Both the position numbers and the translations under genes were made by a program. Positions 21,261 to 60,531 of a stretch of 64,000 nt of DNA are shown in pieces. The notes beneath the pieces were generated by a model. It was not told where the DNA came from. It was given only the letters and a program-made list of their open reading frames with translations, and did no database searches. The stretch is from Psammoneis japonica. Lineage: Eukaryota. The stretch is from assembly GCA_008632985.1 (NCBI GenBank), contig QPGO01000121.1, positions 124,001-188,000 on the forward strand, written 5' to 3'. Each line of letters opens with the position of its first letter. Within the stretch, counting starts at the first letter, position 1.

Positions 21261-21332
21261 ATAAGCTAGAAATGATAAAGTACGAAAGGTGGCTTAGTCG
21301 GCTCTATTTCTATCTAAAATAAACTTGTTTCT

Positions 21333-34073: not shown

Positions 34074-34499
34074 GGTTGCAACAGTGTTAAGGAGTCTGAG
34101 AGTTGACAATACAGTAAGTACTTCTACCGGTATCTATCCAATGTCAAACACACAGGGAGTTGCAGGAAAAAACGTCTCCGCATGTTTCCACGCGTTTTTT
34201 CCATAAAAAGGCACCAGCCCGCGCCGCAGATAGTCCAGTGGCTGGCTACTGGTAGTGGAGATAGTGCAGAAAGCCACTACCGTATGTACCGGGCGGCCGT
34301 ACTGTACTGTAGCCTACCAGAGAAAGCAAGAGAGCAGACGATTACGACGACTGCCAGCATGCCGCACGTACGTCGTACGTGCAACAGCGAAAAGCCAAAG
34401 ACGTGAGCACTGCTCGTACTGCCGAGTTCATCACCGAGTCAAACTACAGTCTACTAGCTGCTAGCTAGAGCAGGCCCTGCTGCTGCAGTAGCAGCTGTG

Positions 34500-37400
34500 C
34501 TAAGACTGTTATTGAAAGAATATTTTGTTGTACTAATCAGTTACTAATGATCCTAAATCCTAATCTGTGCATTGTGTAAAATGCGTGTGCATCCTGTCCG
34601 CTGGCGCCCAGCTCCTGGTTGCAGCCAATGAGTCCAACACCGTCGCCTGTGGCATCAATCAACTTGACTTTTGGATTCTCCATAGCGCAGTATGTCGAAT
34701 CTTCCGACTTGAGGTCCACATAAATGATCCTGGACCCCCGACCACCCAACAAATGAACCTTGTTGATTTTCCCAGAGACCTGGATTGGCAAGGGCACGAG
34801 GGCTGTGGAAGACAGGACCTCAGAGTCAGACTGCCTCATTGAAGACAGCTCATCTGAAAGAGCTTCAAGGCGCTTGTAGACGTCACGGAGTTCATCATCG
34901 CCACCGTGGTTTCCCCCTTGGGCAGTGGCTTCATCAAGGAGAACTGCGTGGAGAGCGTCCATGTCCATGGAGTGCTGTGGCCACTGGGAGACGCAACTGA
35001 GCATCCACCCATTGCTCACAACAGACAGCTGGATGCCAGAAAGGTCCGTGGTGCAAACGCCAGATCGAGCCACAACAACCAACACGACATGATTGGTCTT
35101 GGTGACAGAGTCCTTGCAAGCAGCTTGCAAAACCATGGGCTTGAAGCTTTTCCAAGAACCTCCTTGCCCACCACCACGTGACTCCATCACAGAAGCAACA
35201 CCAGCTCCATTCATGACAGCAGCTGCATCGTTGTTGTTTGCAGGAGCTGGAGCCGACACCGTCCGACGAGTGCTGTCAAGGCCACCCGAGAACAGCTCTT
35301 CGTCGCCGTCGTCGGTGTCTGTGGCCAGATGAAATTGAAAAAAGAACACCGCGCGGCGCGGTCAAATGAAAATGCACGCGTCAGCAACAGAGTGACGTCA
35401 CTCACATTTATTTCGAATGCATGTGCGGACACGGTGATGATCAAAACTCACCGTCAGGGTTCTCATTGCTGTTGTTCATCGTTCGACGAAGATTGAACCC
35501 GGTTTCGTCTTTGAGCCTGTGCAAGCCAGTGCGGAACTTGTCCAGTGGACAGCGCATGAACTCTGCGCGCATCTGCTGGATCTCTTTTGGCGTCGCTCCA
35601 GCGCTTGCCCTGCCATCCATCAGCATCTCCTTCAAGAGTTTGCAGTCGGCGGACCCCTTGCGCCACACTGCTCAAAGGGGGCCGGCGGCCTCAGTGTCAA
35701 GAACCGATTTGGTTCGTTGGTTGAGTTTGGGCATGGTTTCTTTGGTTTTCTCTTTTTTATGAGAGGATTGATGGTGCACAGTCGAGAGTCGTCAAGATCA
35801 GCGTTCGCGTTGACGGGCAGCAATGAGAACCCCATTTTTGAATGGGTCACGGCCAACTTACCTCACCACTGTCCACGGGATGCTCTTTTCAAATTTGAAT
35901 AAATTCCAACCGCCAAAATGAGATTTGAGAAAACACCAACCGCCAACATTGAGAAAGGGCCTCTTGACAACGAAGATTCCCTCAAGACCACACGAAAAAC
36001 GTTCCGAGACCATGCAAAAATCGTTCCCAAATCACACCCAAAACGATTTTCAGCTCCAGAACGATGACTTAGGACCATCTCAACTGAAGAATGAGTGGCT
36101 GAATCCCAAGCTTCGGCGTGTGTTTGCGACAGCACCAACGGCAAACTGGCTCCTGATGTTTATTTTGGCTTTTCATTGGCACATTTCCGTGCGCTTTTCG
36201 TCTGTGAAAAGGCGATTTCATTTCGATTTGTAGAATGAGAATGCTTTTTTAATGCCCCACCAATCATGGATTGTGGTTGTGTAATTCTGCATCACATGTT
36301 GCATGCAAACTGCTGTGTTGGTTGAGCTAAGAGCACGCTTTGGAATGGTTGTTCTACCGTGTTCCGGTTGACAAAACGACGTCCAAAGTTGCCCATTGCG
36401 AACGTCCCGAAGTCACCATTCGGAAACCATGCCCGAATCGCATTTTTTTCGTATTTTCTTCAAACACGACGGAATCTCACCAAAGGCCTCTTCTGATGAG
36501 AACCCCAACTGCGTGAAGACGACAAAACACAATTGTCAAACATGAAACAACCACTGCTCTAGAGCAGCCAGCCAGAGACCAGAGACTGGCTGCTGGCAGC
36601 AGAGACTGGCACAAACGGCACAACAGAGAAAAGACCAAAGCAACACACTGTGGCATGTTGCCAATTACTTGTCATGAGACCACCCAAAGAGGCCGCAGAG
36701 TGCTTGGCACAGACAATCATTCAGAAGCCAAAAGGGTCACCTGCAGTGTGGAAACGTCGGTTCGCATCATGCTTCTGTGCCCCAGAAGAAGCAGCATCTG
36801 AGTTGTGGGGGCTTCTCGTTGATGACGGGAAAATGCCACGAGGTTTTTTGCCCACTCACATGCTCTGCACCCTTTGCTTTCTCAAATTGTGTGAATCTGA
36901 GACAGTCGTTGCAGGCATCTGTAATAAAATCCATGAAGACACGCTGAGAAAATGGGTTTGGGTCGGAATTCAACTTGTTGGACAGTTAAATTTGGTGCGC
37001 ACCATTCCAGATGGGACCCACATGTGTGAAACAAACAGACTGACACCTTGTTCTTAGATTCACTGGGAAGACCGCTTCATTGATGACAATGGCAGCAGAT
37101 GTTTGGTGACACTCGACGGCACTGATTTCAGAATCTACGAGCCATCACCATTTGATCCAATGTGGTTCTCCCATAAATTCCACGGTGCTGGGCTGCGGCA
37201 TGAAATTGGAGTGTGCATTCAGACAGGGTGGATTGTTTGGGTCAATGGGCCGCACCCAGCTGGGTTGCCGGATCTGAACATTGCTCGTGAATGGATCATT
37301 GAAGAGCTTGAAGACGGCGAGATGCATCTAGCCGACGGTGGCTGCAGCGACGGGAGCCAGTGCAGCTTGACTCCATCTGGCCTGAGAAATGCAGACGAGG

Positions 37401-37900
37401 CTATGAAAACAACAGCAAGGGCAAGGCATGAGGCTGTTGATGGATGGTTCAAGCGTTTCGGAATGCTTGACAAAAGATGCCGCCACGCGAAGGAAACACA
37501 TTGCCATGTGTTTCATGCCGTGGCCAACATCACACAGTTGGCCCTCATGATGGGTCACTCGCCATTTGATGTGGATCATTTTGACAACTAAAATTAACAG
37601 CAGAAAGCATGTTGTCGCCAAGATGATGTTGCCGTGAACGTTCCTTAATCTCATTGTCGATGCAACGCCTCGCGAGTCGATCGCGAGCAAAAGCGAACCC
37701 CTCCTCCCCACCACAGGCAGACCCACAGCAGGGCCCTGCAGCACTGTCATACGGTGGGGCCCACAGCATGCGCCGGACTGCATCTCCGTGACGCAAGGGC
37801 GGGTGGCGGCAGCGCGCCCGCCCGGGGATGAAAATGCACCCACCGATGACGCAATTGTGACGTGCGCTTCCCACGCTTTTTCGTGGTCAGCCTTGCGGGG
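34500..37900. mobile_element. PIF/Harbinger DNA transposon (divergent accessory ORF plus transposase), TpA-mutated; ends approximate
   Basis: Two-ORF layout: minus-strand ORF about 35734-34537 with an intron, and a plus-strand DDE transposase; TIRs not resolved. Confidence 0.75.
36674..37591 (+). pseudogene. Harbinger (DDE_Tnp_4-like) transposase, intron about 36994-37057
   Basis: LDGTDFRIYEP, WFSHKF.GAGLRHEIG, WVNGPHPAG..D, LADGGC, RARHEAV..FKRF; positions expected to be Tyr read His or Cys. Confidence 0.85.
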
Positions 37901-37999
37901 TGCAGACAGATGCCGGCAGTGCATCAGCGCATGCATTTTTTATTTCTGATGATTCTGCGCGCAGATGATGGGGATGCGACAGAGATGCCGATGCCGAGC

Positions 38000-40900
38000 T
38001 TCAAAATCACACTCTTGTCTCACACCCATTGAAGCTTGTGGTTGGTTGACTCCATTTCTCTTCAACCAAAAGCACTCACTTTTTCCTCTTGCATGGCAAA
38101 TTTCAAGATTCTCAGCAACAAAAATCAAAAGCACAAAACAGCCCTCTGTTCGTTTCCACGACAGACACACCCAGCATGACAACTGGCAGACAAGATGATG
38201 ATGTTGTTTCCGGGGTAATGCGGCAAACAAACAATGCTGCAAAAAAAGCTGCCGCGTGTCACATCATCCGTGCCATCAAGCAGCAGTGCAACAATTGTTT
38301 TTTCCTGCAACTCCCAGGAAGCATGAGCACGCCAGCAATGACAGAAGCCAGTGCTTTTCGTGACAGCCGGCATCTGGCGGCAAGGCAGAAAGATTTGACA
38401 TTTTATTCAGAATTGAATGATTGCATTGTCTTTCCCGCCAAAATTTTCCGTTCCGGCGGTTGAACATGACGTGTCAATTTTCAAAAGGTCTTGCTCCGAT
38501 TGTGTGCAAGCGGCAGGGCCTGTGGTGTGTGCTTGCTCACATGCAGAGTCCGTCCTCACCATGAAAACTCTAGTCTCTACTGTGGCTGCTCTGGAGGGCT
38601 GTCTAAAAGTTCTTGGAGTGGAGATGGCTCTGTGATTTCAGCTCTCGAAGGTGAGAGCTTCCGTCTCATAAAACTCATCACTTTTTGTCTGAATCTTTTC
38701 CCATTTGACACAGCATTCGAGCGTGGAGCTGATGCTGATCTTTGGATCTTGTCCCAGACAGCAACGGGAAGACACCAGCAAGAATCATTTCTGCACATGG
38801 GCAGCTGCCGCAAAACAATGCAGGAACAAGTCCTCCTCCATTTCGCTTTCACAGAACGTCCACTTCGGGTTGGCGGCACCACAGCACAAGCAAGCCGCCA
38901 CGCCTGGGAACAAACGGCTTGGCCTGAAGATGTTGGTTGTTCTCAGAAAGCAATGAAGCACTGACAACATGACATGTTGAGCTGCTTGCAGTGGCTTCAA
39001 CATCAAAAGCACTGAAAAAGAAACTCACATGTCAGGGCTCCATGGCAGCAGAAGTGCAGGGGCGAGGCTCGACTGTCTCTGCACATGGCTGTTGTGCTTC
39101 CGGCACAGCATCAACAGGCCCCACAGCAAAAGATTTTCCAGTGCTGTCCACTTTAGAATTTGTGTCAAGACTTGACAATCTTTCCGTGTGATTGCTCACA
39201 GAGGCAGTGTGTCCCCCGCTGCTCAATCTCCTGTTCCGTCATGACGTTGATGACCCCTGCTTCCGATCATGCAAAATTCAAAGAAAAACAAACATGTTGA
39301 ACAATCCCTGCAAGGGCATGAGAAACTGCAAGAGACAAGTGACTGTGAAACAGTGAAATGTGAGTAAAGAACAGCAAGCATCGATGACAGCGTTGCCGCG
39401 CAGCAGTGCGCGTGCACTAGAAATCGTTCTGCCCCATCACTGTCCTCTGAATGCCAGCAACGTGTCACCAAAAACAGGCAATGACCAGTGCTCCAATGCA
39501 AAGAAAGACCTGTGGCGCCACTTGCTTTGAACGCATTTGCTGGGTTGCTTGCAACTGCCGCCACCCATGCTGTGATTCAAAGTTGCATCAGTCTCTCATT
39601 CGCTCTGTCTTCCAGACATGATGCAACATGACAAAAAAGCAAATTGCTGCAATGACAATGGACAACAACAGTTGTCAGAACATCCAAGTGGCAACAATTG
39701 CATCCAGCAGCCCATGCCAGCAAATTGTGTGCTCTGAGTGGCAACACCACAGCAGATGGAACAAACGCCATGAGATTGTCACAATGTGCATGTGTTGCTC
39801 CACCTTTTCAGTGATCCATCATGGGACTTGCTGTGCTTCACCAGGAGGAGATGGCAAATTGCTGATGAGGCCACATGGCAGACTGCTCCCAAGCCAAACC
39901 CAATCAAGAAGCCATGTGCTGAACACATCTGCATGCTGCCTCTGGCAAAAGCAGCTCCGACAGCACCCAATGGAACAGGGATGCTTGAAAGGGCCTGCAT
40001 GGTGGATGAAATGGCGTGGAGAGTGCTCAGACTAAACATGAGCTGACAGTGCTTTTCTTTTGTTTTGTTCTTCCAATCTTTCACAACAACACCAACAACA
40101 GTGCATGATCCAATGGCTGATGACAAGCCAACAGGAGTGCAAACAATTTGGAGCAGGCAGAGCTGCTCAAGTGCAACGGGCATGGGTGTGCTTCTCCAGT
40201 TGCAGGCTCTTTGGAGAAGAAACTGCAAGTTGGTCACAGCATTGCAACACTTTCTGCTCAATCTCCCAAATGTTTGGCAGCACCTTGAGCCAAATTTAAA
40301 CTTCCAACTCAGTCAAATTGATGCCGTCAGTGACTCTTGAATCTGTTTGATGGCCTGAACAGGAGCAGCACAGCAGCAAACACAGTCCACTGTCAAACCA
40401 AAACAGAAAATAAAACAGTGAGAAATCCCAAACCACCGCATGCTGCACTGTGGCGCTTGGTGCAAAATTGCGCACGCACTTCACCGTGTTAAAAAATTGA
40501 AACCACGGTGAAAGCATGAAGGAAGCATGTGGGGCATGATGATGTGTGCTTGCAGCTGCACCTGGAGTTACAACATGCACCCTCTCTCTCTGTCATGTGC
40601 TGAACAATGTTTTTCACCCCAAATGTGTTGCTGCATTGGGAGTGAACTGCATTGCACTGTGCAGTGGGCAGTGCTGTGTCGCGGCTTTGTGCTGGTGCCA
40701 AAGGGTGCATTGGAGCAGTTGCTCAAAGATGTTGCATGTTTGAGCAATCACACAAACATGTCATGTTTGCAAAGCCTGTTTCAGCAATTGCTGAAAGATG
40801 CTGCATGTTGCTCAAACATTGAGCCCCATTTGCTCAAGCCTGCCACATTTGAGCAAAAAGGTGGTGTCTCTACAAAACGTGATTCAAGCAGTGCACAGGG

Positions 40901-43900
40901 TGCTGTTGGCTGCCAGACTGCACTGCCAGCAATGCCCCATGTCATGCACATGTGCACGCCAGAATGTTTTTGAAGGGTGAGTGTGCTCATGCCACAGACT
41001 GCTGTGGCTCAGCTGCACATCCCGCATGACACATCTGAAAATTTGCTCATTGTTGTGTGCTGAGGAAACCCAAAAGCAAACAAGAGAACACCTGCTGCAG
41101 CTGTGCTGTGTTCTTCAGTTGGTCCTGACACTGGATCAGCAAAGAGAAAAGAGCAGTGGCATGCACCACTTCATTTTGCCTTTCCTTGCCACAACCCAGC
41201 AATGAGCTGGCATTTGTGTCCACTTGGGAACCCATTGAGAAGCTCATGGCTGAGTTGCACCTGCTCCACCTTTTTGCAACGAAGAACTCATTGGGCACAC
41301 CACACAGTTAAGGGGAGAAACAAGAGCACCATTGCCAGCAGCAGACTCTGGCAGGCATCATGTTGATGAGGTCAAGCCATGTGCCCAGAGCCACTGCCGC
41401 TCCACCCCATGAACTCACAGCATCAGACTGTCAAGTGTGAGACAGAGTGGCAACAACCAACAAGATTGCTCCACCTTCTTTTGGCTGCATCTCTGTGTCA
41501 GACAACATGACACAAGAGGAGGGACAGTCATCAGGATCACTGCAAAGAAAGAGTGCATGGCATGGTTGCAGACATGGGAAATGCAATGATTCAGAGAGCC
41601 CTGCATGACTTTTGGATTGTTGCGTGAATGACTTCAATGGTGCCAGATCAGATGTCCAGCAATTGCCCTGGTGAAACCAGCTGGCATCAACAAGCACAAA
41701 GCCAGTGCAGGACGAATGAGATCCAAGGAAAGCCTTGGTCATGGGACCCCAAAGCCAACTCTCAGGAACTTCTTGCAGTGATCTCCATTGTGCTGCACAT
41801 GACATCTCTGCTGGCAAGGAAACCTTCATGAAAACCACAAAGGCTGTTGCCAATTGTGTCAGATCAGAACATGTTGACAAGGGGGGGGGGCATGGGACTG
41901 TCAAGTCTGGAGCTAGAGCCAGCAACTGTGAGCCCCAGGACCCACTGGATGGGGCCACACAAACCCAGCTCAAGCAGGTGGGGGAAGTTGCACACAAGAC
42001 ATTGCAGCACCAAAAGCAGTCCCAGGAGGAAGTGCTCCAACTCAGTCTTTGCTCTGATCTTGTGCCACTGCACCCAACCACTGTGCAATCAAGTGGAGGC
42101 TCACAAGGGCTGGGCGGATGTTCAATTGTGACATTGGTGTCATTTTCCAGCTGGAACTTGGTTGTCCACAGTTGTTTGATGCAGAAGCAGATCTGGAGGA
42201 GTCCTGTGCACACCATTGTCAACACCAAGCACTTCTGCTTGCTTTTTGTCAATCCTGCCACATGTCCAATGCAGGCTGCTGTGACAAGGTGCACTGCTTG
42301 GTTGGCATGGCTGAAAGACTTGCTGGTCAGACAGGGTCACACAGCACCCTGAATGAGTTTGGGCCATGCTGCAGGACATGGTTTTCAAATCAAATGACCA
42401 ACATTTCAATTTCAGACATTGGGTGGAATCAATCTTTCCTTTCCAAACTGGCTCCAAAAGGGTTTTGAGACTTTTCTCATGCATCATCATTGCGTGTCCA
42501 CTTGTGCCATCTTCACATTTTGTGTTGCAAAAGAACAAAAAATCAGCAAAAATCTCTGCCAATTTGTCCTCAAGAAAGCCAAGCACAGCCTCTTTTCTGT
42601 CTTGTCTTCCAAGTTCAAGTTTGAGCAAGTGACCATTTTTGCAATGTGTCATCCAGAGAATTTGTTCCACGGCTCTTGTTTGGAACAGCAGCAGCACAAA
42701 ACATTTCACCACTCTGACAGCTTGCTCTCCATGTGCTTTTCCTTCATCACACTTTTCTTCTCTTGTGATGAAGGCATCAAACCACAAGGCAACAACACCA
42801 CGTGAAACAACAAATTGAGATGATCCAAGGGACAAACACAGAGTGAGCACTCTCTTTCAACAGCGTCTTTTTAGAAATGCTGTTTGCATCAGAGCAATGG
42901 TCAGCAGTTGCCTCCTGCTGCAGCACATGTGACAACAAAATGGTGCAAACAAGTCACAAGAAGCACCCACAAAATGTAAACTGTGTGCAACATTTCTGGA
43001 CAATGTTTGCCTCATCTAGACCACCCATGCTTGCTTCACTTGAACCATTTGCTTTCCTGCACTGGCTGCAGCTTTTGTGGCACAGCACTTTCTTTGTTCT
43101 CAAACTTGATTGCTGCCCCTGATTTGTTCACTTGTTTTGCATTGCTTGCAGTTTTTTTGTGTGGTGGTGGGGGGAGGTCATGTTTCTTGAGCTGCTCTGC
43201 TTTTCAACAACAAATGGCACCAGCACTCATGAGCACTCACCAAACATGACCACTGCTCAATTTTTTGCCCTGTCTTGGCAGTTTTGCTGAGCTTCTTTTG
43301 CTTCTCCATTTGTTGAATTCTTTTCTTCCAAATGTCACCAAGCAAACCCTTGGGAGGGGGGGCTGTTGTGTGTGCCAGTGCTGTTGTCACATGGTGCTCA
43401 TGCATGAGTGCATGAAGATGGTGTGTGACATGGTGGCAGACATCACAAAGTTTTGTCCTTTTTACAGTGGAGTCATTGCATGAGGTCCCAACCCCTCAGA
43501 TGTCAAAAATGTGGCCACAAGCCAGTTTTCATGCTGTCAAAACTTTGATGTCACTTGACTGGGGTGGTCAGTGACTCCACCTTTGACATCAACTCAAGAT
43601 TTTTCAAACTTCTTGAAACCTCTTTTTTGCTGTTCCAAACATTGTTTTGCAGCTTTTCATTTTCCCCTTCTCTGTGTTTTGTTTGGCATTGTGTGCCACC
43701 TGTGTTTGCAAGTGGCTCTCTAATGTTTCAAAATGACTTTGAATGCTTGGCAGGGCTCCAAACTGCCCTTGACTCAAAACACAGTCACACATGCCTCACA
43801 TGCCAAAGTGTCAACAGATGCCTCAAAAACATCAGCATGATCTTTTTTGTAACCAAATGAGCAAACTAAGATGCACAAAAGACCTTCTCTTCCTTCTTTG

Positions 43901-44250
43901 TCAATTGTTGACACTGTCAGATGCTGTGCCTCCCATCAGGTGCTGTTGGAAGCCATCTTGGTTGGCTGTTGCTCAGTCCAGGACAAAACCAACTAAACAG
44001 ATGGTGAAGGGGGGCACCTCTCTCAAGGTTGCACAATGCAGTGCAGAGGATGATGGTTGCAGCAGGCAGACAACAAGATGTGCCAAAGATGTGAACTGTG
44101 AGAAGATCTCACATTTGACCGCAGATGACATTTTGACCTGATGGTCATGTGTGTCACTCTGATCACTGTTGCCAGAAGACTCAAAGGACATTTCTTCCAG
44201 AAGCAGAGATCGATGACCAGAAGCATCATCCATGAATCAGACTTGGCATT
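38000..44250. other. Degenerate TpA/CpG-depleted sequence of unassigned origin (probably TE-derived)
   Basis: Same composition as the flanking TE relics; no motif I can assign with confidence. Confidence 0.45.
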
Positions 44251-44299
44251 TGACTTGTGACATTCCCTTTCAACCAAGCAGAGAAGGAGGACAAACAGT

Positions 44300-46300
44300 T
44301 GCCAGCCCATGAGGGCCTTGCGACCAATTCAGAATGGATCAGCAGTCAATCCTTTGGCAAACTGGTTGGCGAATTGTGCAGCAGAACTGACAGGCTTAAT
44401 CTTGATCTCCAAAGCCTCAACCTTGGTGCAAAGCCAGTGGTGCAGAATGCCAATGTGCTGGGTTTGTGGGGACAATTTAGGCATGCCAGCAAATTGGAGG
44501 CAAGCAGCATTGTCTTCACACACAACAGATGCTGGTGGGTTGGCAGTGTTGATCGGTGAGGCATCTGTGCCATTGCTGGCTTGTGGGAAGGCTTGGAGTG
44601 GGCAATTGCCTTGTTGCAAGTGTCTGGTTGTGCAAAGACATGTGTGTTGGTTTCCTCCAAGATCTTGCAAAGGGGGATGAGATTGCGCATTGCTTGGGAA
44701 AGTGCGACATGCTTGGCTTCCATTGCAGAAAGTGCTGCCAGGGTCCGCAGCTTGGACACCCAGATGATGGGACATCCCCCACACAATGAATGACACAACC
44801 AGTGTGTGACTTGACAGAAGTGGGGTTTTGTCTGTCTTCAATGCTGAAGAGTCCCGCAAAATCAGCACCAACAAGACAATCAAGCCGATGATCTGTGGTG
44901 GGTGCAAGGATGAGACCCTTGTCAGTGGCACCCTTCAAACCCCAAGGAATGCACTTGACAGCAACAGCATGGGAGGCCTTGGGAGCAAAGGAGAACCAAG
45001 CAACTTGGTGGGCAGTGCAGGCAATGTCCCGGCAGCTGTCAGATGCTGGATGCATCAAAACATGCCAACCATGGAGTGACAGTTGCAAGGTTCATCAAAC
45101 AGTGGGCCTTCAGAATCACTGCCAACAGGTGCAGGAAGTGCAGGAGCAAGAGCTTCATTGCAGCTTTCCATCTTGGCAGTGCACAGCACTTTCTTGATTG
45201 GGCCTGGCCAGGTCAGCAGGAATTGGCCATCCTCAAGTTTCTGGATCTTGATGCCCAAAAAGTTGCCGACTCTGCCTTCATCACGCAGGTCAAAGACATG
45301 GCATTGTTCATCATTGGAGATGCCCAATTTAGCAATCTCAGCTTCAAGTTTTTCAGAGGATGCTCCGGCAAACACAGTGTCATCAACATGTGCCACGCAC
45401 AACACACCCTTTTTAAAACAAAGACAAGGGTCAATGGCAGACTCAATCTATCCTCGTTCAATCAGTCCATTGCGCAGCTTTTGATGGAAGCACTTGGGAG
45501 ACTGGCAGAGTCCACATGGGCCTTTCAACAATTTCAGTGCCAAATCTGTGCACCTGATTTCAGCTGAAAACCTTCAGGAGGCTCCACACAGACTTTCTCC
45601 TTAATGTCAGCTTGGCAAAATGTGGCAGTGTGGTCAACTTGACCAGTGGTCCAACCTTCTTTGAGTGCAAATTGATGACCATTGCATGACCGGTGCATGG
45701 AACTAAAAAAAATCAACACCTTGTTTCTGCAAATCACCAGAAACACAATGCTGGGCTTTGTGCTTCAAGGGTGCACCACCAGGGAGTCTTTTAAGCTTGA
45801 CAGCTCATGCACCAGGTGGCACATTCACATTGTTGGTCAAAGGTGCCATTTCCCATGCACAATGGTGGAGAAGCACATTTGTCTTGATTTTCATGGCCTT
45901 GACCCATTTGTCGGCCTTGTGACTGCACATGGCTTCATGCAGGGATGGCACATCAGCGTTCTTGTGTTTCTTTGTAGTTGCGTGAACCCTGGGATCATCA
46001 ATGTTGCAGGTCTGTGAATCAACACAGGCATCCAGAGTGGCAAGATGGGACAACTGTGCTGCAGTTCCATGCAACTTGTCTTTTGGGTCTGCTGGAGCAA
46101 AGAAAACTTCATCCACGAACCTTTTGGACAGCAGCTGACCCTTGTTTGATCAACTTGAATGGTGCAGTGGAGGAGCTCCCTCTGGAGAAGTGGTGGGAGG
46201 AGGCTCCAGTGTCGTTGGTGTCATCGAAGGAACAGGTTCAGGTGGAGTCACGGCAGGTGGTGGCTGACCTTTGACTCTGGTGGCAGTTCCACAGAAGTGG
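44300..46300 (-). mobile_element. Ty1/Copia pol relic (RT-RNase H)
   Basis: QVDHTATFCQADI..VCVEPPEGF, CVAHVDD (YVDD), CRDIACTAHQ, DFAGLF, ALSAMEAKHVALSQ, ANQFAKGL. Confidence 0.88.
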
Positions 46301-46592
46301 GCAGGACTGGAGGGTCATTGGGTGCACCAGGAACTTCAACGCAGCTCAAGCTGGCTCCCTCTGTTTGTGTTGCAGTCCATCCGGGGTTAGCCAATCATCA
46401 TCTAAATGGACATCTTGACCTTTCTCAAGGGGCATCTGCCCTTTCCTGCACTCTCTCTCTCTCTCAAACAAATGAATGAACAAACAAAATCAGTGAAGCC
46501 AATTTTCCATCAAATTTAACTGACAAGAATGCAAGCAGCTGAGGCAGACGCTGCCAGCTTGGATGTTTGTCCAACTGTTCAACAAATGGCAG

Positions 46593-46593
<1 letters not shown>

Positions 46594-46668
<75 letters not shown>

Positions 46669-46680
46669 CTCTCTCTCTCT
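46594..46680. repeat. (CA)n-(CT)n compound microsatellite
   Basis: Read directly from the sequence. Confidence 0.95.
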
Positions 46681-46799
46681 TGAATGAACAAATGAGCAAT
46701 CTCTCTCTCTCCCCACTCTCATGTGGCAGCCCTCTTGCCAGAGCTCCTTGTCCAGCTCAAGGACAAATGCAACCTGATGCTGCCCCATTCTAGGGTGAT

Positions 46800-49700
46800 T
46801 TCTAAATCTGGGGATGGCATCAAAAACCATGTCCAGGTGGCAAACTTGCTTGGTGTGTCCCCTTTTGGGACTCACCATGAGATGTGACTCACAATTTGCT
46901 GGAGCTTCAGTCATCAGCAGTGCTCACATCTGTTGTGTGTTTGTCCTCCCAAGCAAAGTGCACAATCACTGCAGCTTGTGCTTCACAAGTCCTGTGATGT
47001 GCAACTGCACTGTGCTTCTTCTTCTTCAATGTGAACTCTGGTCTGGTTGAGTTCTTGAAGACAACTTTGTTGTTGCAAAAGTCACCAGTGGTTCACCCTG
47101 CCAGGGAAATTCCCAGCATCTGAAGCTTGCAACACAAGGCTTCAATTTGCTCCATGGTGGTCTTCATCACCATGAACTCTGACCCAAAAGTGGATGACTC
47201 TGGGTTCTGCTGCTTGGAGAGCAGCACAAGATGGGTGCTTGCTGGTTGAGCAACAGGATCTCAGCAGTGTGTGACCTGTGCATCACACAGCATCCAGCAC
47301 AATCAGCGCCAACAAAGCAGGCAGCAGTCATGCCATTCCTGCATGCCTCTGGCACATTTGGCAGCATTGGTTCAGCAACACCATGGCAACATCCCCTCCA
47401 ACCACACTCAGCAAACCAACTCTCATCAAAGACAGACTCAGGTGTTGTCAAACACAAATTTGGACTTTGAGTGGGCCCTCCAGTGTGCAAAGATGTGGAG
47501 CACCTCATCCAGCTGTCCCGCTCATGGTGCTGCAAGGCAGGAGAACATGAGCAAGATGGCAACAAAGAACATGTCACTCAACTGCCCATTGGAGCACCCC
47601 GACAAGGCTTTGGCAACAATTTGCCATTTTGTCATTCAACCTCACTGAACTGTTCAGCTCTGGTCTGTGTCCTGAGGTTGACACCTTCATTGGAAGGTGC
47701 TTGTCAGTCTCCCCAAGTTTTAGCTCAACATCTGCCAATGCCCTTTTGACATGCAAGTCAGAGGACATGGCCCAGTGGGTCTTGCCATCCTCATTGGACA
47801 ACTGGCATTTTCTAATTTGTGCTCCTGGGCACTCTTCCAGTTCACGGACACTTCTGTCCTTCAATGTGTGCACCCTCCTCAGCTCATGAAGCCCACAACT
47901 TTCTGAGGGTCATGGGAGATGCATGGCAAGTTGTGCACACATGCAAGTGTGTGTTCCCAGTGCTTGAAGCTATCAGGCTCAACTGCTGGTTGCATCCAGA
48001 CATCCAGATTGGCTTTGCATGACATGAATCTGGCAGTGTCACACAGAATTGCTGCCACATGCTCTCTGAATTGCTCACCTGATGACTTGAGACCACACAA
48101 GGCTTGGACAAAAATTGCCAGCCTTCCTTCATTCTGCTTGGTGCTGAGCTCCAGAGCCAAGCAGCAGCGTGACACTTTTCCTTGGTCTGTGCATTCAAAT
48201 GGGCATTCTGAACATCCACACTCAAGACTCCAATGGTGCAAGCCATTCTCACATGCCATTGCATGACACACCACCAGAGTGGGTCAACTCTTTTCTTTGA
48301 TCAATTGTTGTCACCCATTGTCAGCCTTTGCGGCACCATGAGCATCACTTTGGTGATCAACCATTTTCCTTGTGATCTGGCACACATTGCCTTCAGAGTC
48401 AATCTGGGTGAAAAGATTCTCTGCCACTGCATTGGCAGTGTAAGAAAAAATCCAGGGATCCATCTGGGAACTCCACATCACATGTTCTGGAGTCCAGCCA
48501 GGACTGGGTTGTTGTTCCAGTGCCCACAGGAACACCATTGCTTTTGCATTCACGAGTCACCAGCAATGACTCTTGCATGAGTCAGCTTGCCTCCTTGTGG
48601 CAGCATGACTTGAGTGGTGAGATGCTTGTCTGGCCCCTCCAGGTGTGTGCTGGTTGGCTTCCTTGGCTGCTGCAACCAGAGTCCAGTTCCACAGGCTCCA
48701 GGTTGTTGTCCCAATTGCTGTCCATCAGATCATCTGGAGCACCAGAGAACTCAACCTTTGCATTCCCTTTTGGGTTGCCTGGTTGCTTGATCAAAGCTTG
48801 ATTGACAGAGGCTGAGTTCACCTGAACAGCTGGAGCAATGAGATCATCATCTAGCATGGCCCACAATCTTTCCAAATGACAGGCCTGCCAGATTCAGGCA
48901 GCATGACAAATGCCATTTGTCTGTGAAATTGTCAGCAACTCCAAACCAATGACCTGTGCACTTCTTTTCATGCAGGAAATCCTCCACATGCTTGCAGCAG
49001 CCCACAGGTTGGTGCCAAACAAAGAGGAAGAAAGTTGAGATGTCAGTGGTGGAAACTGAGATCTGCTCCTTTGGCACCCATCCTCTCATGTCAGATGTGT
49101 TGGAAGCTGTGAAATGCTGAATGGCCCATGTCCATTGGGCACAGTGGGACCACAAGCATTGTGGCAGTCATGGATGCCTTGGCTGGGTGCTGCCAGGGGC
49201 TGCATGGCACAAACACCTCTTCTTGATGTGTCCTGCATTCCTTTCAAATGTCCTTGGTCTGGCCTTCTGCCATTTCCAGTGTGCCATCTGACACAGAGGT
49301 TTGAGGAACACTGGTGCAGTGGACAAACAACATCATGACAGCATCAGAATGATCCTGTTTCCTTTTGCAAAGATGGAACCTGTTGCACCCTCTTCTGTTG
49401 GCAAAGATGCCACTCCCCAGCATCTCACCATGCATCAATTTGATCTTCAAAAACATCTGGTCAGAGCAAAAGTGTCCCCCCCTTTTGACAAATTGAGCCA
49501 TGAGAGGCTTTCTTCCAAACCTTCCATTGAGATGGAGCACAAACATTGCAGACCCCAGCCTGGGTTGTTGCTTTAAGTGCATTTTTGGCATCCGTCAGGC
49601 CAATGTTCCATCTCTTGGATGGCATCCAGGGCATGACAGTTGATGCATGACCTGAGGTCAGCAGCACACATCTGCACTTCCACCACTTGTTGCAATCTGG

Positions 49701-51950
49701 GTGGACATCATTGTCACACCCTTCATGCAGCCCATCTCCCCAAATGTTGTCATGGAATGCATTGACCTGGGTTGTCAAGTGGTGATGCAGAGCATCGCTG
49801 TCATCAGATTCCATGCTAACATGCTTTTGCTGTGATGCAAGCACTGGTGTGCAAGTGAGCAGAAGGGGTGCACCTGCTCATGTTTGTCAGTGTTGCCAGT
49901 TCATGAGTCAGAAAATTGGCTGACATTTGGTTGCACACTGGCACATGGCAGCCCCTCAGCAAGAGGCTTCCATTTTGTTGGAGTTGTCAGTTTCAGGCAT
50001 GGAAGATTGTCCAAGTCATTTTGGCTTGGCTTGTGTGAGTTGAAGACCAGTGCAATGCCTGCAGACATGAAGGAATCCCAACCTTCAAGTCAGGGAAAGT
50101 GATGGAATGGGTGCTGCCCTTGTCAAAGTGTCAAGGAGTGTTGTGGACAGTCAATCCATTTGCTTGCAGTTGATGTGTTTGTTGTTTGGTCTCTGAAAAA
50201 CATGGCCTCATGGACTGGCAGTGAGTGTGGTTGGCCGTCATCCAGCACAACCCACACAGCAGCAGCCATGCAAATGGGTGTGTCATTGACATGCTCATGC
50301 TCTTCAGAGCAGCCATGAGTGTGCCATCACAGTGCAGTTGTTGCTGGAGCACATGACAAAATTAGACCCCGCAGAACAAGTGTCAGCGTGCAAGTCCAAG
50401 TTGTTTGTTGCAATGGCATCAAGCTTTTCAGCTAATGCCAGTGATCAACGCATGTCTTTTGGAATTCACCTGGACAAATGTGGAGTGCCAGCAGGTGCAG
50501 GAATGTTCAATCCTGTGCCATTTGGTGCTGATGCAACTGTTCATTTCTCTTTCCAGGGTTTTTTGTGGGTGCCTCATCCAAATTGACCACCTGCATTGGC
50601 AGCAGGCTCCTTGTCTGACTCACTCAAGTCCTTTGGTTCCTCATCAGGCTTGGATTCAAGTTCATCCATCTTTGGGTCAGCAGGGGAACCTTCTTGGCAG
50701 AACAAGTTTCCTCTTCCTTCATTTCTTCTGAAGAGATGGAGCTGACCCTTGCACTTGTGGTCAGCCTTGCACACCTCATGCAGCTTCTTGTTCTGTTCCT
50801 GTTCTTTGCCACTGAGAGCTTTCTGCTTGTCTGCAGGACCTTCTCCTTCTTGGTGCTGTGCTTGTTGCCACCTTGCTCTTCTGCATTGGTTGCTCTCATG
50901 CTGACCAATGTGGGTGATGACGCAGTTGTTGGCATCACAGTTTTTGGTGTTTTCAACCAGAGTTTTGATGTGCAGCTGGCAAGCCTCAAAATCCACAAAC
51001 TTGGTGGGGTCTCCATCCACAACCACACTCTTCCCAGTCTCCAACCTTGGGTCAGAGACACCTTTGAGAAAGTCAGAGACCTTGGTCTTGCCCACCAGCT
51101 TGTCCAACTCCAGTGAGCTATCACGAGCCTTCTGACAGCACTGAGTGCACTGGTTGACAGCAAAACAACCCCGTCTGGTGTGCTTTGCAGCAGCAATCTG
51201 TGCATGCATGTGGTTCTTGCAGGTTGTGGCAGCAACCAACCATCCCTTTAGCCTGCCTCTTCAAGGCAAAGAATGTGCCAAAACCATCCCTGGTGTTGTT
51301 CAATGGCTCAGCAAATGCCCATCTGGGCCCATCTGTCACCAGCTTCTTGAGCATGTCATGGAGATGCTCACGATCCTGCAAGTGCCAAGCCCCTTCCAGT
51401 CATTTAGCAGTGATCAAGTTCTTGTTGATGGTGGCACAGTCATGGACCAGCATCTCTGGTCACTGCTTCATGTTCCCCAACAAAGTGGGCAAGCAGCAAG
51501 CAGGGCCCCCCCGCGCAGTTGCGCTGCAAGATGGTGTCTCCAATGACTCTTGAAAGGCAGGCCAATTTGGAGGTGCTGCTTGTGCTCAATGGCACTGCTT
51601 GAGTTGTCATCTTTACCTGCCATCTTGAGTTGCTCCAGTTCAGCAAGTTGTGCCGTCCACTTGGCAACAATGTTGTTTCCAGCAGAAGAAGCAGACACAG
51701 GAGCTTGGTCTCACACCCTTCTGTGGTCTGCCACATGTTGTCCAATGCAGCACTGTTCTGGTCCTCAGGAGCATTTGGCTCATGTTCATAAATGCAGATG
51801 CACACAAAGAACTTGGCAATTGTGTGAGTGACCATGGGACCAACACGGCGCTCACCCCACAAATTGATCAATTGCAATGATGCTGTTGCACCATTCATGA
51901 TGCCCATTCCAGGCGCATGAACATCACATTGCAGTGGCTCTGACGAAGTG
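46800..51950 (-). mobile_element. Ty1/Copia relic (gag-PR-IN-RT-RH), second lineage
   Basis: gag LHDMLKKLVTDGPRWAF..RDG; IN FCSDQMF; RT DVQNAHLNA, QALCGLKSSG, ANCCQSLVGVLQWAVE; RH FVGADCAG..RSHT. Confidence 0.85.
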
Positions 51951-51956
51951 AACAAA

Positions 51957-52325
51957 TGTTGGAACAAGTTGGAAGATGGGGAATTTGAGGAACCTGGGTG
52001 TGTTGATTGAAGGAAAGATGTTGTTGCTCTCTGTGTGCAGAAGACACAACAACCCATTGAGAGCAAAAACACACCACCACCAATCTCTCCCATCTGTTGT
52101 GTTTGCATCACTCTTTAGAGTGAATCATTTGGTTTGTCAAGAATGTGCAATCTTGCATCGCATTGACATCACTGGGGGGCACCTGTTGCATTGTGAGTTT
52201 GAAGTTTGCACAGACAACTTTGCAAGCAACCCACAGCTGCACAAGTGGCCAAGGCCAGTGGTGTGACAAGAGCACTGGAAGCCTGTGGGATTCTGGTTTT
52301 GTGCCATTAACTTGCTGGTTCAACA
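51957..52325 (+). repeat. 5' LTR
   Basis: tgttggaac...gttcaaca; collinear with 56701-57087. Confidence 0.85.
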
Positions 52326-55300
52326 TTCACTCAAAAGAATCAACAGCACAATTGTGTTGGTGTGTTGGGATGCTTTGCAGCCTGCGGTTGACTGACTGCT
52401 GAGCACCTGCACAATGAGCAGCAAAGGAAACATCAGAAGTGACAACCAAGGCCAAGGACATGGCCAAGGAAAGGGTGACAAGAGTCACAGGTCCTCTCAA
52501 GCAAAGAAGAAGACCACAACTGAGAAATCCCTGCAATGAAGGTTCATCCTTTGTTGCTGAACAGCAACTCTTGGAATGCAACATGTGAAGATGTCAAGGA
52601 AAAGATCACAAGTGCACACAAGGCACACATCTGGCAAGGTCCATTGAAGATGTGGCACACAAGAACTTCAGCAAAAACAAGCCAAAAGTGGGGATGGCAA
52701 CAACAGCAGTGCCAGAAGCTGACAAATCAGACTGCCAGGAAAAGTTGCTGCAGAGACAACAAGAGGAAAAGGAACTGGAGTTCCAGCACAAGGCGCAAAG
52801 TTTCACAAATGCAGTGACAAAGTGAGGCAGTTCAAAGAGATTAAGACTGTGGCTTTTGTCAAGATGCCAAATGACTTCCACACCAAGTGAATGAAGCAGA
52901 GACTGCAGCCAAGCCAGCGCCACTTGTTGTGCCATGATCAGAGTGGAAAATCCAATCAAGCCATTGAAGCTGATCCAGTCACTTGCTTTTGACTCCATGA
53001 GAGGTCGACACCCATTTCACACCCTTGCCAGAGCAATTTTGTGAAACAACAAGAACAACAGTCATTGAGTGACTGTTTGTTTCAGATTCACCAAAAATCA
53101 ACAAGAGATGCTGCAAGTGAGAGTCTTGGCAATGAGATGCTGGACAAGGTTGTCAAGAATGTCAGGAAGCACAAGAACAGTGCTTGAAGGAAGAAGCAAG
53201 GGGAAATGACGCAACAGCATTTAAGACATGGACAATGCACCTGCTTGTGGAAAAAACAGTGACAACAACTCACACAAGAGCTCAGAGAAGAGCTTCATCA
53301 GAAATTGCAGCCTGGGAAAGGACAACAAAGACATGGGCATGGATGAGATCATCCTTGACAATGGTTTGACCCTCAGCATGGCAGCTGACTGGAGGTCAGT
53401 GCACAATGTGTGACCAGCAAAGGTCAAGATGGACCTGTCCATGAGTGCGGGGGCAGACACTTTAGATGTGGACTGCATCATGCCTGGATGGAGAGACATG
53501 AAGCTGGGGCTGCAAAATGTGACAGCAAATGTTTTCAGTTTGAAGGACATGAAGAGCAAACACCACATCATTGCATGTGATGACCAAGTGGTGGACAAGT
53601 TCTGGCTGCTGGACAAGAAGATTGGCGAAAAAGTTGCAGTGTTTAAAGCCAACAACATCAAAATGTGTGCCTTCACACCAAGCCAGAAGTTCTTTGACAA
53701 TGCAAAAGATCTCCAAGAAAGCAAGTCACATGTGAACATGCTGTCAAAGACAAAGACGAAGCTCAGAAAGAAAAGCAGCAAGAAGCACAGGAATGCATCC
53801 AGAATTGCAGTTCTCTAATGGTGGATCAGAGCTCTGCAGGCTGCACCAAGAGGGAGGTGACAAATGCCAAGCAAGTGCTCAGGCTGTGTTGTGAGGCTGG
53901 AAACTCCAGTGTGAGTCATTTCAAGCCATCAAACCAGGTGAAGAATCTGTGCATCACACCTGAGAACGTGGACAGAATGGCAGACATTTGGGGACCACCT
54001 GTTGACACACTAAAAGGAAAGACAAAATGCCCCATCAACCCTGCAAGAGGAACAATGTTGTTGCAATTCCACCTGAGAAACAAAGAGAGAAGGTCTGATC
54101 ATCTGCATTGACATTGTGGAAGTGTGCAGTGTGAAGATCCTGCACGCAATCAGCAACACAATCAAGTGTTGATCAAGTGCAAGACTGTGATCCAAGAAAC
54201 ATGCTGGCTTGTGCAATGGGTTGGACATGATGCTGCACCAATGCAACATGGCTTCACTCAAGATTGACTTTGTCTGGTGCAATCCTGAGTTCAAGGACAT
54301 GCCAGAAGAAGTGGCACAAATCTCAATCTGCTGTCTGCAAATGCCAGTGACCACTTTCCTGAAGTTGAGTGAAGTGTTGAGACCATTGAGAAGCAAACAC
54401 AAGCCACAGTGCACTGAATGCCATGCAAGACAAAGCAATGCCCAAGCTGAAGTGCAAGCATGCCATGATCAAGAGTGCCATGATGGCAAACATGCACCCA
54501 CAAAAGAAAGGCATGTCCAATGTGCAAAGTCCACACTCTGTTGTGCAAAGAAGAAACCTTGATTGTGACAAGCACTTTGTACATGGCTTTGGTGCATTTG
54601 TCCTGTCCCATGTTTAAAACAACCCAACAAACACAATGGATGTGTGTGGTGTTGACAGCACATGCCTCCAATCATGTCTTTGTGTTCCCAAGGGCAGCCA
54701 CCACACAATGAACCTGCTCATGGGGAAACTTCTGAACCCCTGCAAGTGTGCTGCTGCACCACTGACCAACACGCATGCAAAGGCAGCCAGTCAAGAAGAT
54801 GGCCTCTTCACAAGGCATCAAAGACTTTGAACTTGCAAGAAAATGCAGAGACAACCTAAATGTTGTTGGGCTGCAGGAGTGCACAATGGACAACAAAAAT
54901 GACAAAAATGAAGAAAACAAAAACAACAAAAATGACAGCAACAGCAAAGATGAAAGCAGCAGTGAACACACAAGTGAGTGCAAAGATGGCAACTGCATGA
55001 CCAAATCAGAAGACAACAAAGATGGTGAAGAAGAGCCTGACCCAGAAGATGAATGTAAAGAAGCAGACAAAATGCTGTCAGGTGAAAGGTCCAGCCCCAA
55101 TCATCAACACAAGGACCATGACAATGAAGCACAACAAGACTCTGTGAACAGTCCGATGAAGACCCAAAAATGGACAATCTGTTCACTGAAGACAAGAGCA
55201 GAGAACAAAAGCTGCCAGATGAGGTGAATGAACTGCCAGGTGCAGAGTGACCAGGAGCAGTGTAAGATTTGGTGCACCCCATGACATGAAGTCACACAGA

Positions 55301-56700
55301 CACAGAGAAAAGAAAGTTTGATTTGCAGGAGTGACAGATGAAGCAACAGAAAAGGATCACAGAAAGCTTGAGCACTGCCATCACTTAAGAACCCATGTGA
55401 CTCCAAATCCAGAGGACAACGTTGAATGCAACACAGATGCAGGAATGGCACTGGTGCAATTCATGTGTGAGATCAATGACCAACGCCAATCAGGAAAGGG
55501 CATTTTCTTTGCCCAACAGTGCCTGCTGCACAAAGGCCCAAAAGCATTTGGCCAGAGAGGACATGAAGCCTCAGAGAGAAGGAAATAAAACAGCTGCATG
55601 ATGGTGTGCATTTTGCATCAGCCAATCTCAGTGAAAAACATGTCTCTGACTGAAAGGAAGAAGGCCATGATTGCCCCGATGTTCCTGGTGGGGAGGCAAG
55701 ATGGTCACATGAAATTTCAAATGGTTTGCAATGGAAAACCAGCTGGGGCATGGCTGGACAAGGATGATTTGACTGGCCCAACTGCACTGCTGGAAGGAAC
55801 ATTGATGACAGCTGTCATCAATGAAATGTGGAAGAGTGCAACATGACAAGCGGCTGATGTGCTGAGTGCATTTGTGCTGACATGGATTCTCCAAAAGAAG
55901 GCAGAGACCGCCACATCACAATGAAGATTGCAGGAGTGTTGGTTGACATGCCGGTGGTCATCAATTCCAATCCATGTGGACCACACATGGTCATGGAAAA
56001 GTGGAAGAGAGTCCTCTGCATCCAAGTCATTGTGAAGCAACACACAGAATGTTGACCACAGCTGCTTTGCTGTGGCACAAGCAATTCCGCAAAGACTTGG
56101 AGAAGATTGGGTTTGAGCTCAACTTGTGCAATCCATGTGTTGCCAATTGGCTGGTCAATGGCAAGCAGCGCACCATGAGTTTTCATGTGGATGACCTGTT
56201 GTTGAGCCACAAGAGCCTCAAAGACAATGACAAAATTTTGAGCTGGCCAAACAAGATGTGTGGAAGCCATGGTGAGGTTGTTGCACAATTTTTTAGTGTG
56301 AGGTTGTTGAAGCAAAGCCCAGACAAAAGCACAGCTGCCAGCATGAAATGGAATTTTGTCACCTGTTTCCTTGGAGGATCAGTGAGTGGGCAATGGACAC
56401 AATCAATGAGGCGGGTCTGCACATTTGGGAAACAGGAGAAATGGCTCGTTGCGCTTGTGTGAAGAGTTTTGTTGATCAAGTGGAAAGGATGACAAGTGAA
56501 TTTGATGAGCTCCTTGACTTTGATTGTTGTTGTCATGCAACACACAGAGAGTGCAATCTGTCACACTGCAGTGTTGATGAGGCTGAGGCACTTGGCAAAT
56601 TGGCAAAGAGCACACACCGAAGGTGGAAATGCCAAGCCTGAGTGTGGACATGAAGCCGAAGAACACTTGTGGATCAGCGATGCAAGTGGCAGGAGGAGTG

Positions 56701-57087
56701 TGTTGGAATGAGTTGGAAGATGGTGAATTTGAGGAAACCAGGTGGGTTGAAGGAAAGATGTTGTTGCTCCTGACATGGAAGTGAGATGCTGCGGTCACGA
56801 CTTGTTGAGAGCAAAAAACATGCTGCCAGCACCGCCGATCTCTCTTGTCTGTTTTGTTTGTCTCACTCTTTGGAGTGAATCATTTTGTTTGTCAAGAACA
56901 AACAATTGCACTGCATTGTTGTCACCAGGCACCTCTTGCATTGCAAGTTTGAAGTTTGCGCAGACAACTTCTTCGTTGCAGGCAACCCACAGGAGCCACA
57001 CACAAGCTGCAGCCAAGGCGGGCACAACGAGAGCACAGGAAGCCTCACAGGATGCCCATTTGGTGCCATTGGCTTGCCAGTTCAACA
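56701..57087 (+). repeat. 3' LTR
   Basis: tgttggaat...gttcaaca; preceded by a polypurine tract. Confidence 0.85.
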
Positions 57088-60470: not shown

Positions 60471-60475
60471 CCATG

Positions 60476-60478
<3 letters not shown>

Positions 60479-60528
<50 letters not shown>
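60479..60528. repeat. (AG)n microsatellite
   Basis: Read directly from the sequence. Confidence 0.95.

Positions 60529-60531
<3 letters not shown>

Follow-up and report, generated by a model that had tools for sequence, protein, structure and literature searches.

As a defence against mobile elements, the natural enzymatic editing of A to G in genomic DNA has been reported directly only once, in a 2026 preprint on the chlorarachniophyte Bigelowiella natans (Mettrop et al., bioRxiv 10.64898/2026.01.13.699255). In mutation-accumulation lines of this rhizarian, two integrated viral regions acquired 231 mutations, of which 230 were TpA changes of the A>G or T>C type, and they were seen in real time, in some lines only, at a rate of ~6e-7 per site per generation, ~1000-fold over background. 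The preprint also describes TpA-poor, CpA- and TpG-rich genomic clusters that are enriched in DDE and reverse-transcriptase domains; its authors propose an ADAT2-like DNA adenine deaminase, and its main text mentions no genetic tools. The other described systems closest to the present case are fungal repeat-induced point mutation (RIP) and the decay of CpG driven by 5-methylcytosine (5mC), and transposons of the diatom Phaeodactylum are reported to be CpG-methylated (PMC9998398). Our literature search for TpA loss in diatom transposons found none and returned fungal RIP papers and the Bigelowiella preprint only. Here we analyse a 64,000-nucleotide stretch of Psammoneis japonica DNA (assembly GCA_008632985.1, contig QPGO01000121.1, positions 124,001 to 188,000; hereafter the window), which holds an island made up of a PIF/Harbinger-type DNA transposon relic and degraded Copia-type retroelement relics. 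We consider it probable that this island records a transition process in DNA that is aimed at TpA and confined to transposons, together with a separate loss of CpG.

A transposon island depleted of TpA

Only 100 TA were counted in the 22,508 bases of the island (4.4 per kb; observed-to-expected ratio, O/E, 0.07), against 37.6 per kb (O/E 0.56) in the gene-rich rest of the window. Both edges are abrupt in the list of TA positions. On the left, TA is dense through 34,577 and then absent until 34,683; on the right, the final TA of the block lies at 56,294 and dense TA resumes at 57,096. These limits (34,578; 57,087-57,096) coincide with element ends, namely the end of the Harbinger relic on the left and that of a 3' long terminal repeat (LTR) on the right. 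The TpA-depleted DNA (O/E 0.05-0.16) has CpA and TpG enriched to 1.5-1.9.

The two parts of the island differ in what else they have lost. In the Copia core, the O/E is 0.05 for TA, 0.11 for CG and 1.87 each for CA and TG, and the combined deficit of TA and CG (86 per kb) matches the combined surplus of CA and TG (88 per kb), so that both dinucleotides were converted to CA/TG. The Harbinger relic (34,580-37,943) retains 31 TA where 126.5 are expected at the gene-rich background density (Poisson P 3e-24; O/E 0.16), and its 173 CG against 195.3 expected is a reduction that does not reach significance (P 0.057; O/E 0.78). In other words, ~75% of TA is gone from the Harbinger relic with no significant loss of CG, while ~90% of both is gone from the Copia core. 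The two losses are thus separable, as the initial annotation had proposed from counts that we could reproduce exactly: 4 TA (O/E 0.15) and 21 CG (O/E 0.65) in 37,081-37,560 of the Harbinger, 2 TA (0.05) and 4 CG (0.11) in 50,041-50,640 of the Copia core. GC content is 0.51-0.54 in the Harbinger as against 0.48, and in a 1-kb profile the CG O/E declines gradually along 35-41 kb, from 0.87 to 0.08.

Because a single RNA is the template for both LTRs of a retroelement, they start out identical when the element integrates and so offer a record of what happened in place. An ordinary repeat search recovered only fragments of such a pair in the Copia core, but collapsing the sequence to purines and pyrimidines recovered both LTRs whole; the same collapsed search found no second pair. 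Between the two LTRs there are now 59 transitions and 18 transversions; 40 of the former fall in pyrimidine-purine (YR) steps, comprising 16 CA/TG swaps, five CA/CG, one CG/TG and two TA/TG pairs, and no TA or CG is common to both LTRs. Each CA/TG swap requires that an ancestral TA or CG was hit twice, independently; the 16 swaps imply ~32 doubly mutated sites in ~360 bases, for which background density predicts 35 TA plus CG. Since the LTRs were identical at integration and now differ by 16 swaps, the changes arose in DNA, after integration and independently in each LTR. The initial annotation had argued for a DNA-level process, and against RNA editing fixed by reverse transcription, from the fact that a DNA transposon is hit on both strands. 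That argument is valid, and the LTR pair excludes RNA editing followed by reverse transcription more firmly still.

Assignment of the core to Copia rests for the most part on motifs read by eye and on the LTR pair, because a Pfam scan of 60 stop-to-stop open reading frames (ORFs) from the island returned a single weak RVT_2 match (45,058-45,447, minus strand, E 0.0085, below the cut-off); Copia-like reverse transcriptase/RNase H motifs are visible in the frame translations. The core also contains, at 46,560-46,700, a purine/pyrimidine-alternating low-complexity tract, first (CA)n-like and then (CT)n-like, at which contigs from a sample described below (run X1) appear to be cut.

Repetition alone is not the trigger, as a duplicated host segment in the same window is untouched. 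This internal control is a tandem membrane-protein gene of ~1.5 kb whose copies lie 3.5 kb apart, are ~95% alike and have normal TA and CG content; they differ by 38 transitions and 39 transversions and have 57 TA and 68 CG in common. We also looked for strand-coherent runs of CA versus TG, the trace expected of a processive single-strand deaminase. Over-dispersion was 1.2-2.0 in the island and 1.5-2.5 in genes, that is, not above genes, and hence there is no strand-run signal.

A further consequence of the composition bears on annotation. TAA and TAG need TA, and for this reason each of the six frames of 34,580-57,087 carries overlapping ORFs 100-300 aa long (60 ORFs of at least 110 aa). An open frame therefore means little here, including the transposase frame that the initial annotation described as almost intact.

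The Harbinger relic and the target context

The Harbinger transposase matches DDE_Tnp_4 at 27.1 bits (cut-off 24.8; E 3.6e-6) and retains, in alignment, the catalytic-region motifs DGTD, ADGG(Y) and RHE, and judged by these sequence features the element would belong to the PIF/Harbinger superfamily. Its frame is open once a 63-bp GT..AG intron is removed (36,995-37,057), which contains the sole in-frame stop (TAG at 37,055); several of its relatives carry an insert at the intron position. We found 68 relatives at E<=1e-3, the best of them 73% identical and one of them from the diatom Seminavis robusta. At the ends of the element lies a candidate 12-bp terminal inverted repeat, AAAATGCGTGTG, at 34,578-34,589 with an inverted copy at 37,928-37,939; the two agree at 10 of 12 bases, and at each of the other two they differ by a transition in a CG/CA/TG step. 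A repeat finder found no longer inverted repeat, and the flanks (GTA/TAA on the left, TTT/TTA on the right) show no clean duplication of a 3-bp TWA target. The limits of the element are provisional because the inverted repeat is short and a clean target duplication is lacking.

Aligned with 25 of its 68 relatives, the transposase shows the coding consequence of TpA loss. The peptides in which the initial annotation had expected Tyr (LRHEIG, NGPHPAG, EMHLADGGC and LCFLKLCE) are present in the plus frame, and Tyr stands at Y176 in 25 of 25 relatives, at Y224 in 24 of 25 and at Y302 in 24 of 24, where the window has His, Cys and His. The possibility that the family consensus itself carries His or Cys at these places, which would have undermined the initial annotation, does not hold among these relatives. 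Opposite any Tyr of the 25 relatives, the window residue is H in 72 cases, C in 58, F in 37, Y in 6 and another in 33; for one relative (P0002), set in the same way against the remaining 24, the counts are Y 123, F 25, H 4, C 2 and 11 others. A single Tyr is left among 284 aa (0.4%), whereas the relatives average 4.0% and none falls below 2.2%. At 93 conserved columns we found 14 changes, of which five fit TA>CA/TG (Y176H, Y224C, Y302H, N256D after T, and L297P as CCA), one fits CG>TG (R258W, CGG>TGG) and eight are of other kinds. The presence of both Y>H (coding-strand T>C) and Y>C (coding-strand A>G) means that both strands were hit, and the minus-strand gene of the element is likewise affected. 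This copy is dead.

That minus-strand gene is represented by two ORFs, orfB and orfA, which are probably two exons of one gene. At 3 of 80 related loci that we collected from metagenomes, weak homologues occupy the corresponding place, upstream of the transposase and in unchanged order on the opposite strand (both ORFs in L009, orfA in L028, orfB in L005). Given this shared position, and the 32 relatives of orfA at E<=1e-3, we regard the two ORFs as the second gene of the element. A Pfam scan of orfA and orfB gave no family match, Myb included, and no Myb/SANT domain was detectable. In the orfA alignment, the conserved Y of a 'YKD' motif reads C in the window. The best relative of orfA, P0190 (79% identical), reads ILCVDLK against IIYVDLK in the window and DVCKH against DVYKR, that is, C and H at sites where the window retains Y and R; it looks like a sister copy struck at different TA and CG sites. 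In two other relatives, P0195 and P0198, H or C has replaced Arg at several conserved positions. Three surviving TA of the Harbinger (34,683, 34,691 and 34,721) lie within 150 bases of its left edge and retain two orfA Tyr codons, and the process may be weaker at element ends.

The TA that survive in the island reveal the context of the target. Among these 100, 57 are YTAR (background 15%) and only 4 are RTAY (background 31%). We fitted a four-parameter model in which the two adenines of a TA are independent and the chance that each survives depends on the base 3' of it. The fitted survival is 0.91 before A, 0.48 before G, 0.13 before C and 0.11 before T, and the model fits all 10 tetranucleotide classes, for example TTAA (19 observed, 22.8 fitted, 27.4 with no loss), ATAT (0, 0.7 and 59) and ATAA (13, 12.8 and 127). 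The target preference is thus T-A-Y > T-A-G >> T-A-A. The TA-poor stretches of five metagenome loci behave similarly, with RTAY at 6% compared with 20% in their own flanks. ADAR enzymes, which edit RNA, favour a 3' G, whereas the 3' preference here is for a pyrimidine.

The features of the window are collected in Table 1. Its host is a diatom; the product of the flanking NSF gene shares 86-87% identity with proteins of Asterionellopsis and Helicotheca and ~80-82% with many further diatom proteins, and the neighbouring genes are long and nearly without introns. A second, small TA-poor stretch (59,340-60,690; 6 TA in 1.35 kb, CG O/E ~0.6) includes a (GA/CT)n run and sits between a 608-aa ORF (57,386-59,212) and a transporter-like 618-aa ORF (60,598-62,454); it may be an old transposon fragment that underwent the same process as the island. 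Near the start of the window, at 1,185-5,106, are two long adjoining ORFs (734 and 577 aa) with leucine-rich repeats and a GTPase-like middle, whose C-terminal part resembles a TIR domain as judged by eye only.

Table 1 Features of the window (coordinates are positions in the 64,000-nucleotide stretch)
Feature	Position	Strand	Basis
Transposon island depleted of TpA, 22.5 kb	34580..57087	.	TA counts, positions, Poisson P 2e-233
PIF/Harbinger-type DNA transposon relic, two divergent genes	34578..37939	.	Composition, TA edge, candidate terminal inverted repeat
Transposase gene of the Harbinger relic	Exons 36674-36994 and 37058-37591	+	284 aa; Pfam DDE_Tnp_4 PF13359
Second gene of the Harbinger relic	orfB 35441-35671, orfA 34537-35361	-	Synteny and relatives
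Island core: degraded Copia-type retroelement relics	41001..57087	.	Composition, LTR pair, eye-read motifs
5' LTR of Copia-type element	51956..52325	+	Purine/pyrimidine-collapsed BLAST
3' LTR of same Copia-type element, island's right end	56700..57087	+	Purine/pyrimidine-collapsed BLAST
Internal control: duplicated host gene segment, not hypermutated	17256-18808 and 20779-22304	+	Collapsed BLAST, pairwise alignment

Related copies and alternative explanations

The 80 metagenome loci, 69 of them non-redundant, place the window in a wider series. Over all 80, the TA O/E of the transposase spans 0.14-1.01 (median 0.59); eight loci lie at or below 0.35, most of them with CG at 0.6-0.9. In three of them (L004, L073 and L019) the TA-poor stretch is sharp-edged and element-sized, the flanks are TA-rich and CG is even and normal. 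The share of His plus Cys at Tyr columns climbs as the TA O/E drops (rho -0.47, n=80). Among the 69 non-redundant loci, five of the seven most TA-poor retain a CG O/E of at least 0.6, and four of the six most CG-poor retain a TA O/E of at least 0.4. The best single example of CG loss without TA loss is L021 (CG O/E 0.04, TA O/E 0.42), which at ~1000-2000 has 0-1 CG but 9-11 TA per 250 bases and is CG-free over 750 bases. Of nine near-identical pairs of loci, three differ almost exclusively at TA and CG steps: TA or CG against CA/TG accounts for 19 of 25 differences in L058/L068 and 12 of 13 in L017/L018, and in L052/L066 18 of 20 differing sites consist of 10 TA, 5 CG and 3 CA/TG swaps (a swap being counted as one site with two bases).

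Other copies in the same organism were approached through the contigs of one sample, run X1, which we compared with 33,501-53,500 of the window. These contigs may come from the window's own source and so are not independent support. Summed depth is 580-1068 over the Harbinger and ~55-65 on single-copy flanks, which suggests ~10-17 Harbinger copies at >=90% likeness; at the same likeness, the 38.8-43.5 kb part of the island is now single-copy. Variant places against the window comprise 124 transitions and 21 transversions. We read the best-supported 40 of 149 variant rows, to which all of the following counts refer. They hold 26 events within the block, 16 of them within YR steps, including four CA>TG swaps, seven places with CG elsewhere where the window has TG or CA, two with TA elsewhere, and three at which the window retains a TA or CG. 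At the seven places all other covering contigs have CG, and the loss of CG is therefore copy-specific. This is the pattern predicted if copies decay independently and lose much of their TA but little of their CG.

These data also bear on the order of the two losses. The initial annotation held that TA conversion is faster or earlier than CpG decay. This fits the Harbinger relic, whose CG loss is copy-specific, but it is not a universal order, as L021 has the reverse; and differential CpG methylation of the two element types would explain the window equally well. The Harbinger relic is best explained as the youngest member of the 22.5-kb island.

Several observations weigh against the reading of a TpA-aimed process with separate CpG loss. 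The dinucleotide signature and its confinement to elements, the timing after integration, the involvement of both strands, the preference for certain flanking bases and the decoupling from CpG loss are all read from a footprint and not from mutations caught as they occurred. Over the 69 loci the TA and CG O/E are positively, if loosely, correlated (rho 0.44); this may reflect a shared age, yet it also fits a partial coupling of the two losses. In four of nine near-identical pairs (L053/L077, L038/L054, L020/L024 and L032/L040), transversions are at least as many as context changes. The tetranucleotide model presumes that the elements began with background TA contexts. At polymorphic TA in the near-identical metagenome pairs, the changed A is followed on its 3' side by a pyrimidine in 27 of 39 cases, a weak excess whose P is 0.003 against the expectation from the loci's flanks and 0.19 against that from the window background. 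Two transposase sites break the motif rule, namely Y302H, in which the base is preceded by T, and the retained Tyr codon TAC at 37,136, which stands in a susceptible context. Finally, inside the Harbinger none of the rows read has TA elsewhere where the window lost TA, as both places with TA elsewhere lie outside it, so that TA loss in the family may predate its amplification.

One alternative is that a single, coupled RIP-like machine converts both CpG and TpA to CpA/TpG, with the Harbinger relic as an early stage or a weakly hit island edge. The two losses indeed co-occur in the core with the same products, the CG gradient at 35-41 kb resembles an edge gradient, and the correlation over the 69 loci is in the same sense. 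The most sensitive CG contexts, TCGA and ACGA, are already the lowest in the Harbinger (0.56 and 0.70), and diatom DNMT4 enzymes are reported to be related to the fungal RIP factor RID (PMC9998398). A coupled machine is nevertheless hard to reconcile with 3.4 kb that has lost ~75% of its TA and no significant share of its CG, with standalone TA-poor, CG-normal elements between normal flanks in metagenomes and the reversed case of L021, or with the process in B. natans, which has no C>T part (10.64898/2026.01.13.699255). We therefore regard it as unlikely.

We rate as equally unlikely that the TA-poor state was inherited, in which case a master element mutated once, or a TA-poor source, was amplified in trans to 10-17 copies and no TA event took place at this locus. 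Besides the copy number given by the summed depth and the want of Harbinger rows with TA elsewhere, this possibility gains from the CA>TG swaps: at four of four such places every covering contig has TG against CA in the window, three of the places being covered by four contigs each. However, with ~75% of TA lost per copy, sites that keep TA in all other copies are not expected anyway among the best 40 of 149 rows, and an outcome set by the T-A-Y context makes independent copies converge on one product. A transposase that lacks the invariant Tyr beside the catalytic Asp could be moved only in trans. Y>C and R>H in P0190, at positions that are still Y and R in the window, indicate hits specific to a copy, and the LTR pair proves action in place within the same island. 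Moreover, inheritance would still require a TpA-directed DNA process one step earlier.

The same small chance may be given to a chemistry on thymine, in which the T of R-T-A is modified, hydroxylation to 5-hydroxymethyluracil being one example, and C then results from repair or replication. TpA is its own complement, for which reason T-A-Y and R-T-A are indistinguishable in a footprint. We know of no route by which a modified T is read as C at a high rate, and TadA/ADAT2-kind tRNA adenosine deaminases naturally act on an A after U. An ADAT2-like enzyme is also the candidate named by the authors of the B. natans preprint (10.64898/2026.01.13.699255).

Very improbable, lastly, are ADAR-like editing of transposon RNA fixed by reverse transcription and codon or compositional selection against TA: although A>G beside U is the usual ADAR neighbour preference (10.64898/2026.01.13.699255) and retroelements do pass through RNA, the first is rejected by the CA/TG swaps between LTRs made from one RNA, the second by changes that destroy invariant residues and are therefore not selected, and both by hits on a DNA transposon in either orientation, introns and spacers included.

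Under the reading that we prefer, a TpA-aimed process in transposon DNA with a separate CpG loss, adenine would be changed to G on either strand, turning TA into TG or CA. The preferred adenine would be flanked by T (5') and a pyrimidine (3'), T-A-G being hit less and T-A-A hardly. In chemical terms, the step could be enzymatic deamination of adenine in DNA to inosine, which is read as G, and the enzyme is probably a DNA adenine deaminase. Some cue would have to mark transposons, and the process may still be active. Loss of CpG to TpG/CpA would be a second, independent process, most simply deamination of 5mC in methylated transposons; in the Harbinger it appears to have hardly started, and in the older Copia relics to have gone to completion.

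A bolder version can be put forward tentatively, as a possibility that falls somewhat short of an even chance: diatoms may run an active defence that rewrites transposon T-A-Y to T-G-Y, a 'reverse RIP' by a TadA/ADAT-kind adenine deaminase that acts on DNA and is guided by chromatin or small RNA, independent of cytosine methylation, ancient in the SAR lineage (stramenopiles, alveolates and Rhizaria) and shared with Bigelowiella. If this were true, it would be an ancient defence of that lineage and not the curiosity of one alga. Judging from TA-poor, CG-normal Harbinger relics in many environmental contigs, a broad array of other aquatic protists may do the same.

Comparison with described systems

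The occurrence of this footprint in a diatom implies that the process is not peculiar to one lineage, and it makes study possible in a group that has transformable model species as well as large collections of genomes and metagenomes. The T-A-Y motif is a requirement that any candidate deaminase should reproduce. There is also a caution for databases: TA-free relics without TAA or TAG yield long false ORFs, which gene callers would report as proteins, and transposase 'variants' with His or Cys for Tyr may be mutated corpses.

As an element, the Harbinger relic resembles the PIF/Harbinger superfamily in its DDE_Tnp_4 transposase with the catalytic-region motifs, its divergent second gene and its length of ~3.4 kb. 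It departs from the superfamily in that no Myb/SANT domain is detectable in the second gene, the terminal inverted repeat is only a 12-bp candidate, the target-site duplication lacks clarity and the copy is dead.

As a mutational footprint, the island shares with 5mC-driven CpG decay the signature of CG changed to TG/CA, in the Copia core (CG O/E 0.11) and at the six LTR sites with CG in one copy and CA/TG in the other. Such decay would account for only half of the footprint, as it cannot touch TpA. With RIP in ascomycetes, and the CpG-directed RIP-like process of some basidiomycetes, the island has in common dense transitions that inactivate transposons in a fixed dinucleotide context, on both strands and within sharp element limits. 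Classical RIP converts CpA to TpA and leaves DNA AT-rich, whereas here TpA is destroyed and GC is raised; classical RIP was thus rejected for its wrong direction. The duplication trigger of RIP does not apply either, as the 1.5-kb host duplicate of ~95% likeness was spared. Fungal RIP is an analogue and not the family to which the process belongs.

The likeness to B. natans is closer. In both cases A:T>G:C transitions occur at TpA on both strands, read here from the footprint, and integrated foreign or mobile DNA is affected while adjacent host DNA is spared. TpA-poor, CpA- and TpG-rich clusters with DDE transposase and reverse-transcriptase domains are found in both, and repetition is not needed in either, as seen from a single-copy insert of a nucleocytoplasmic large DNA virus there and from the untouched host duplication here. 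The A>G and T>C changes of the window, like those of B. natans, thus fall at TpA and are confined to mobile DNA. The two differ in several respects. The host here is a diatom, a stramenopile, and the evidence is a footprint in place of a measured rate. Depletion is deeper (O/E 0.05-0.16 as compared with 0.45 for the viral region of B. natans) and its confinement is element-sharp. A separable CpG loss is superimposed here, and CpG goes unmentioned in the main text of the preprint; a 3'-neighbour preference is seen here, and that main text deals neither with flanking context nor with diatoms. Taken together, the island is best filed, on the pattern of its sequence, as the apparent product of the same kind of process as the TpA>TpG/CpA hypermutation of B. 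natans, in another lineage.

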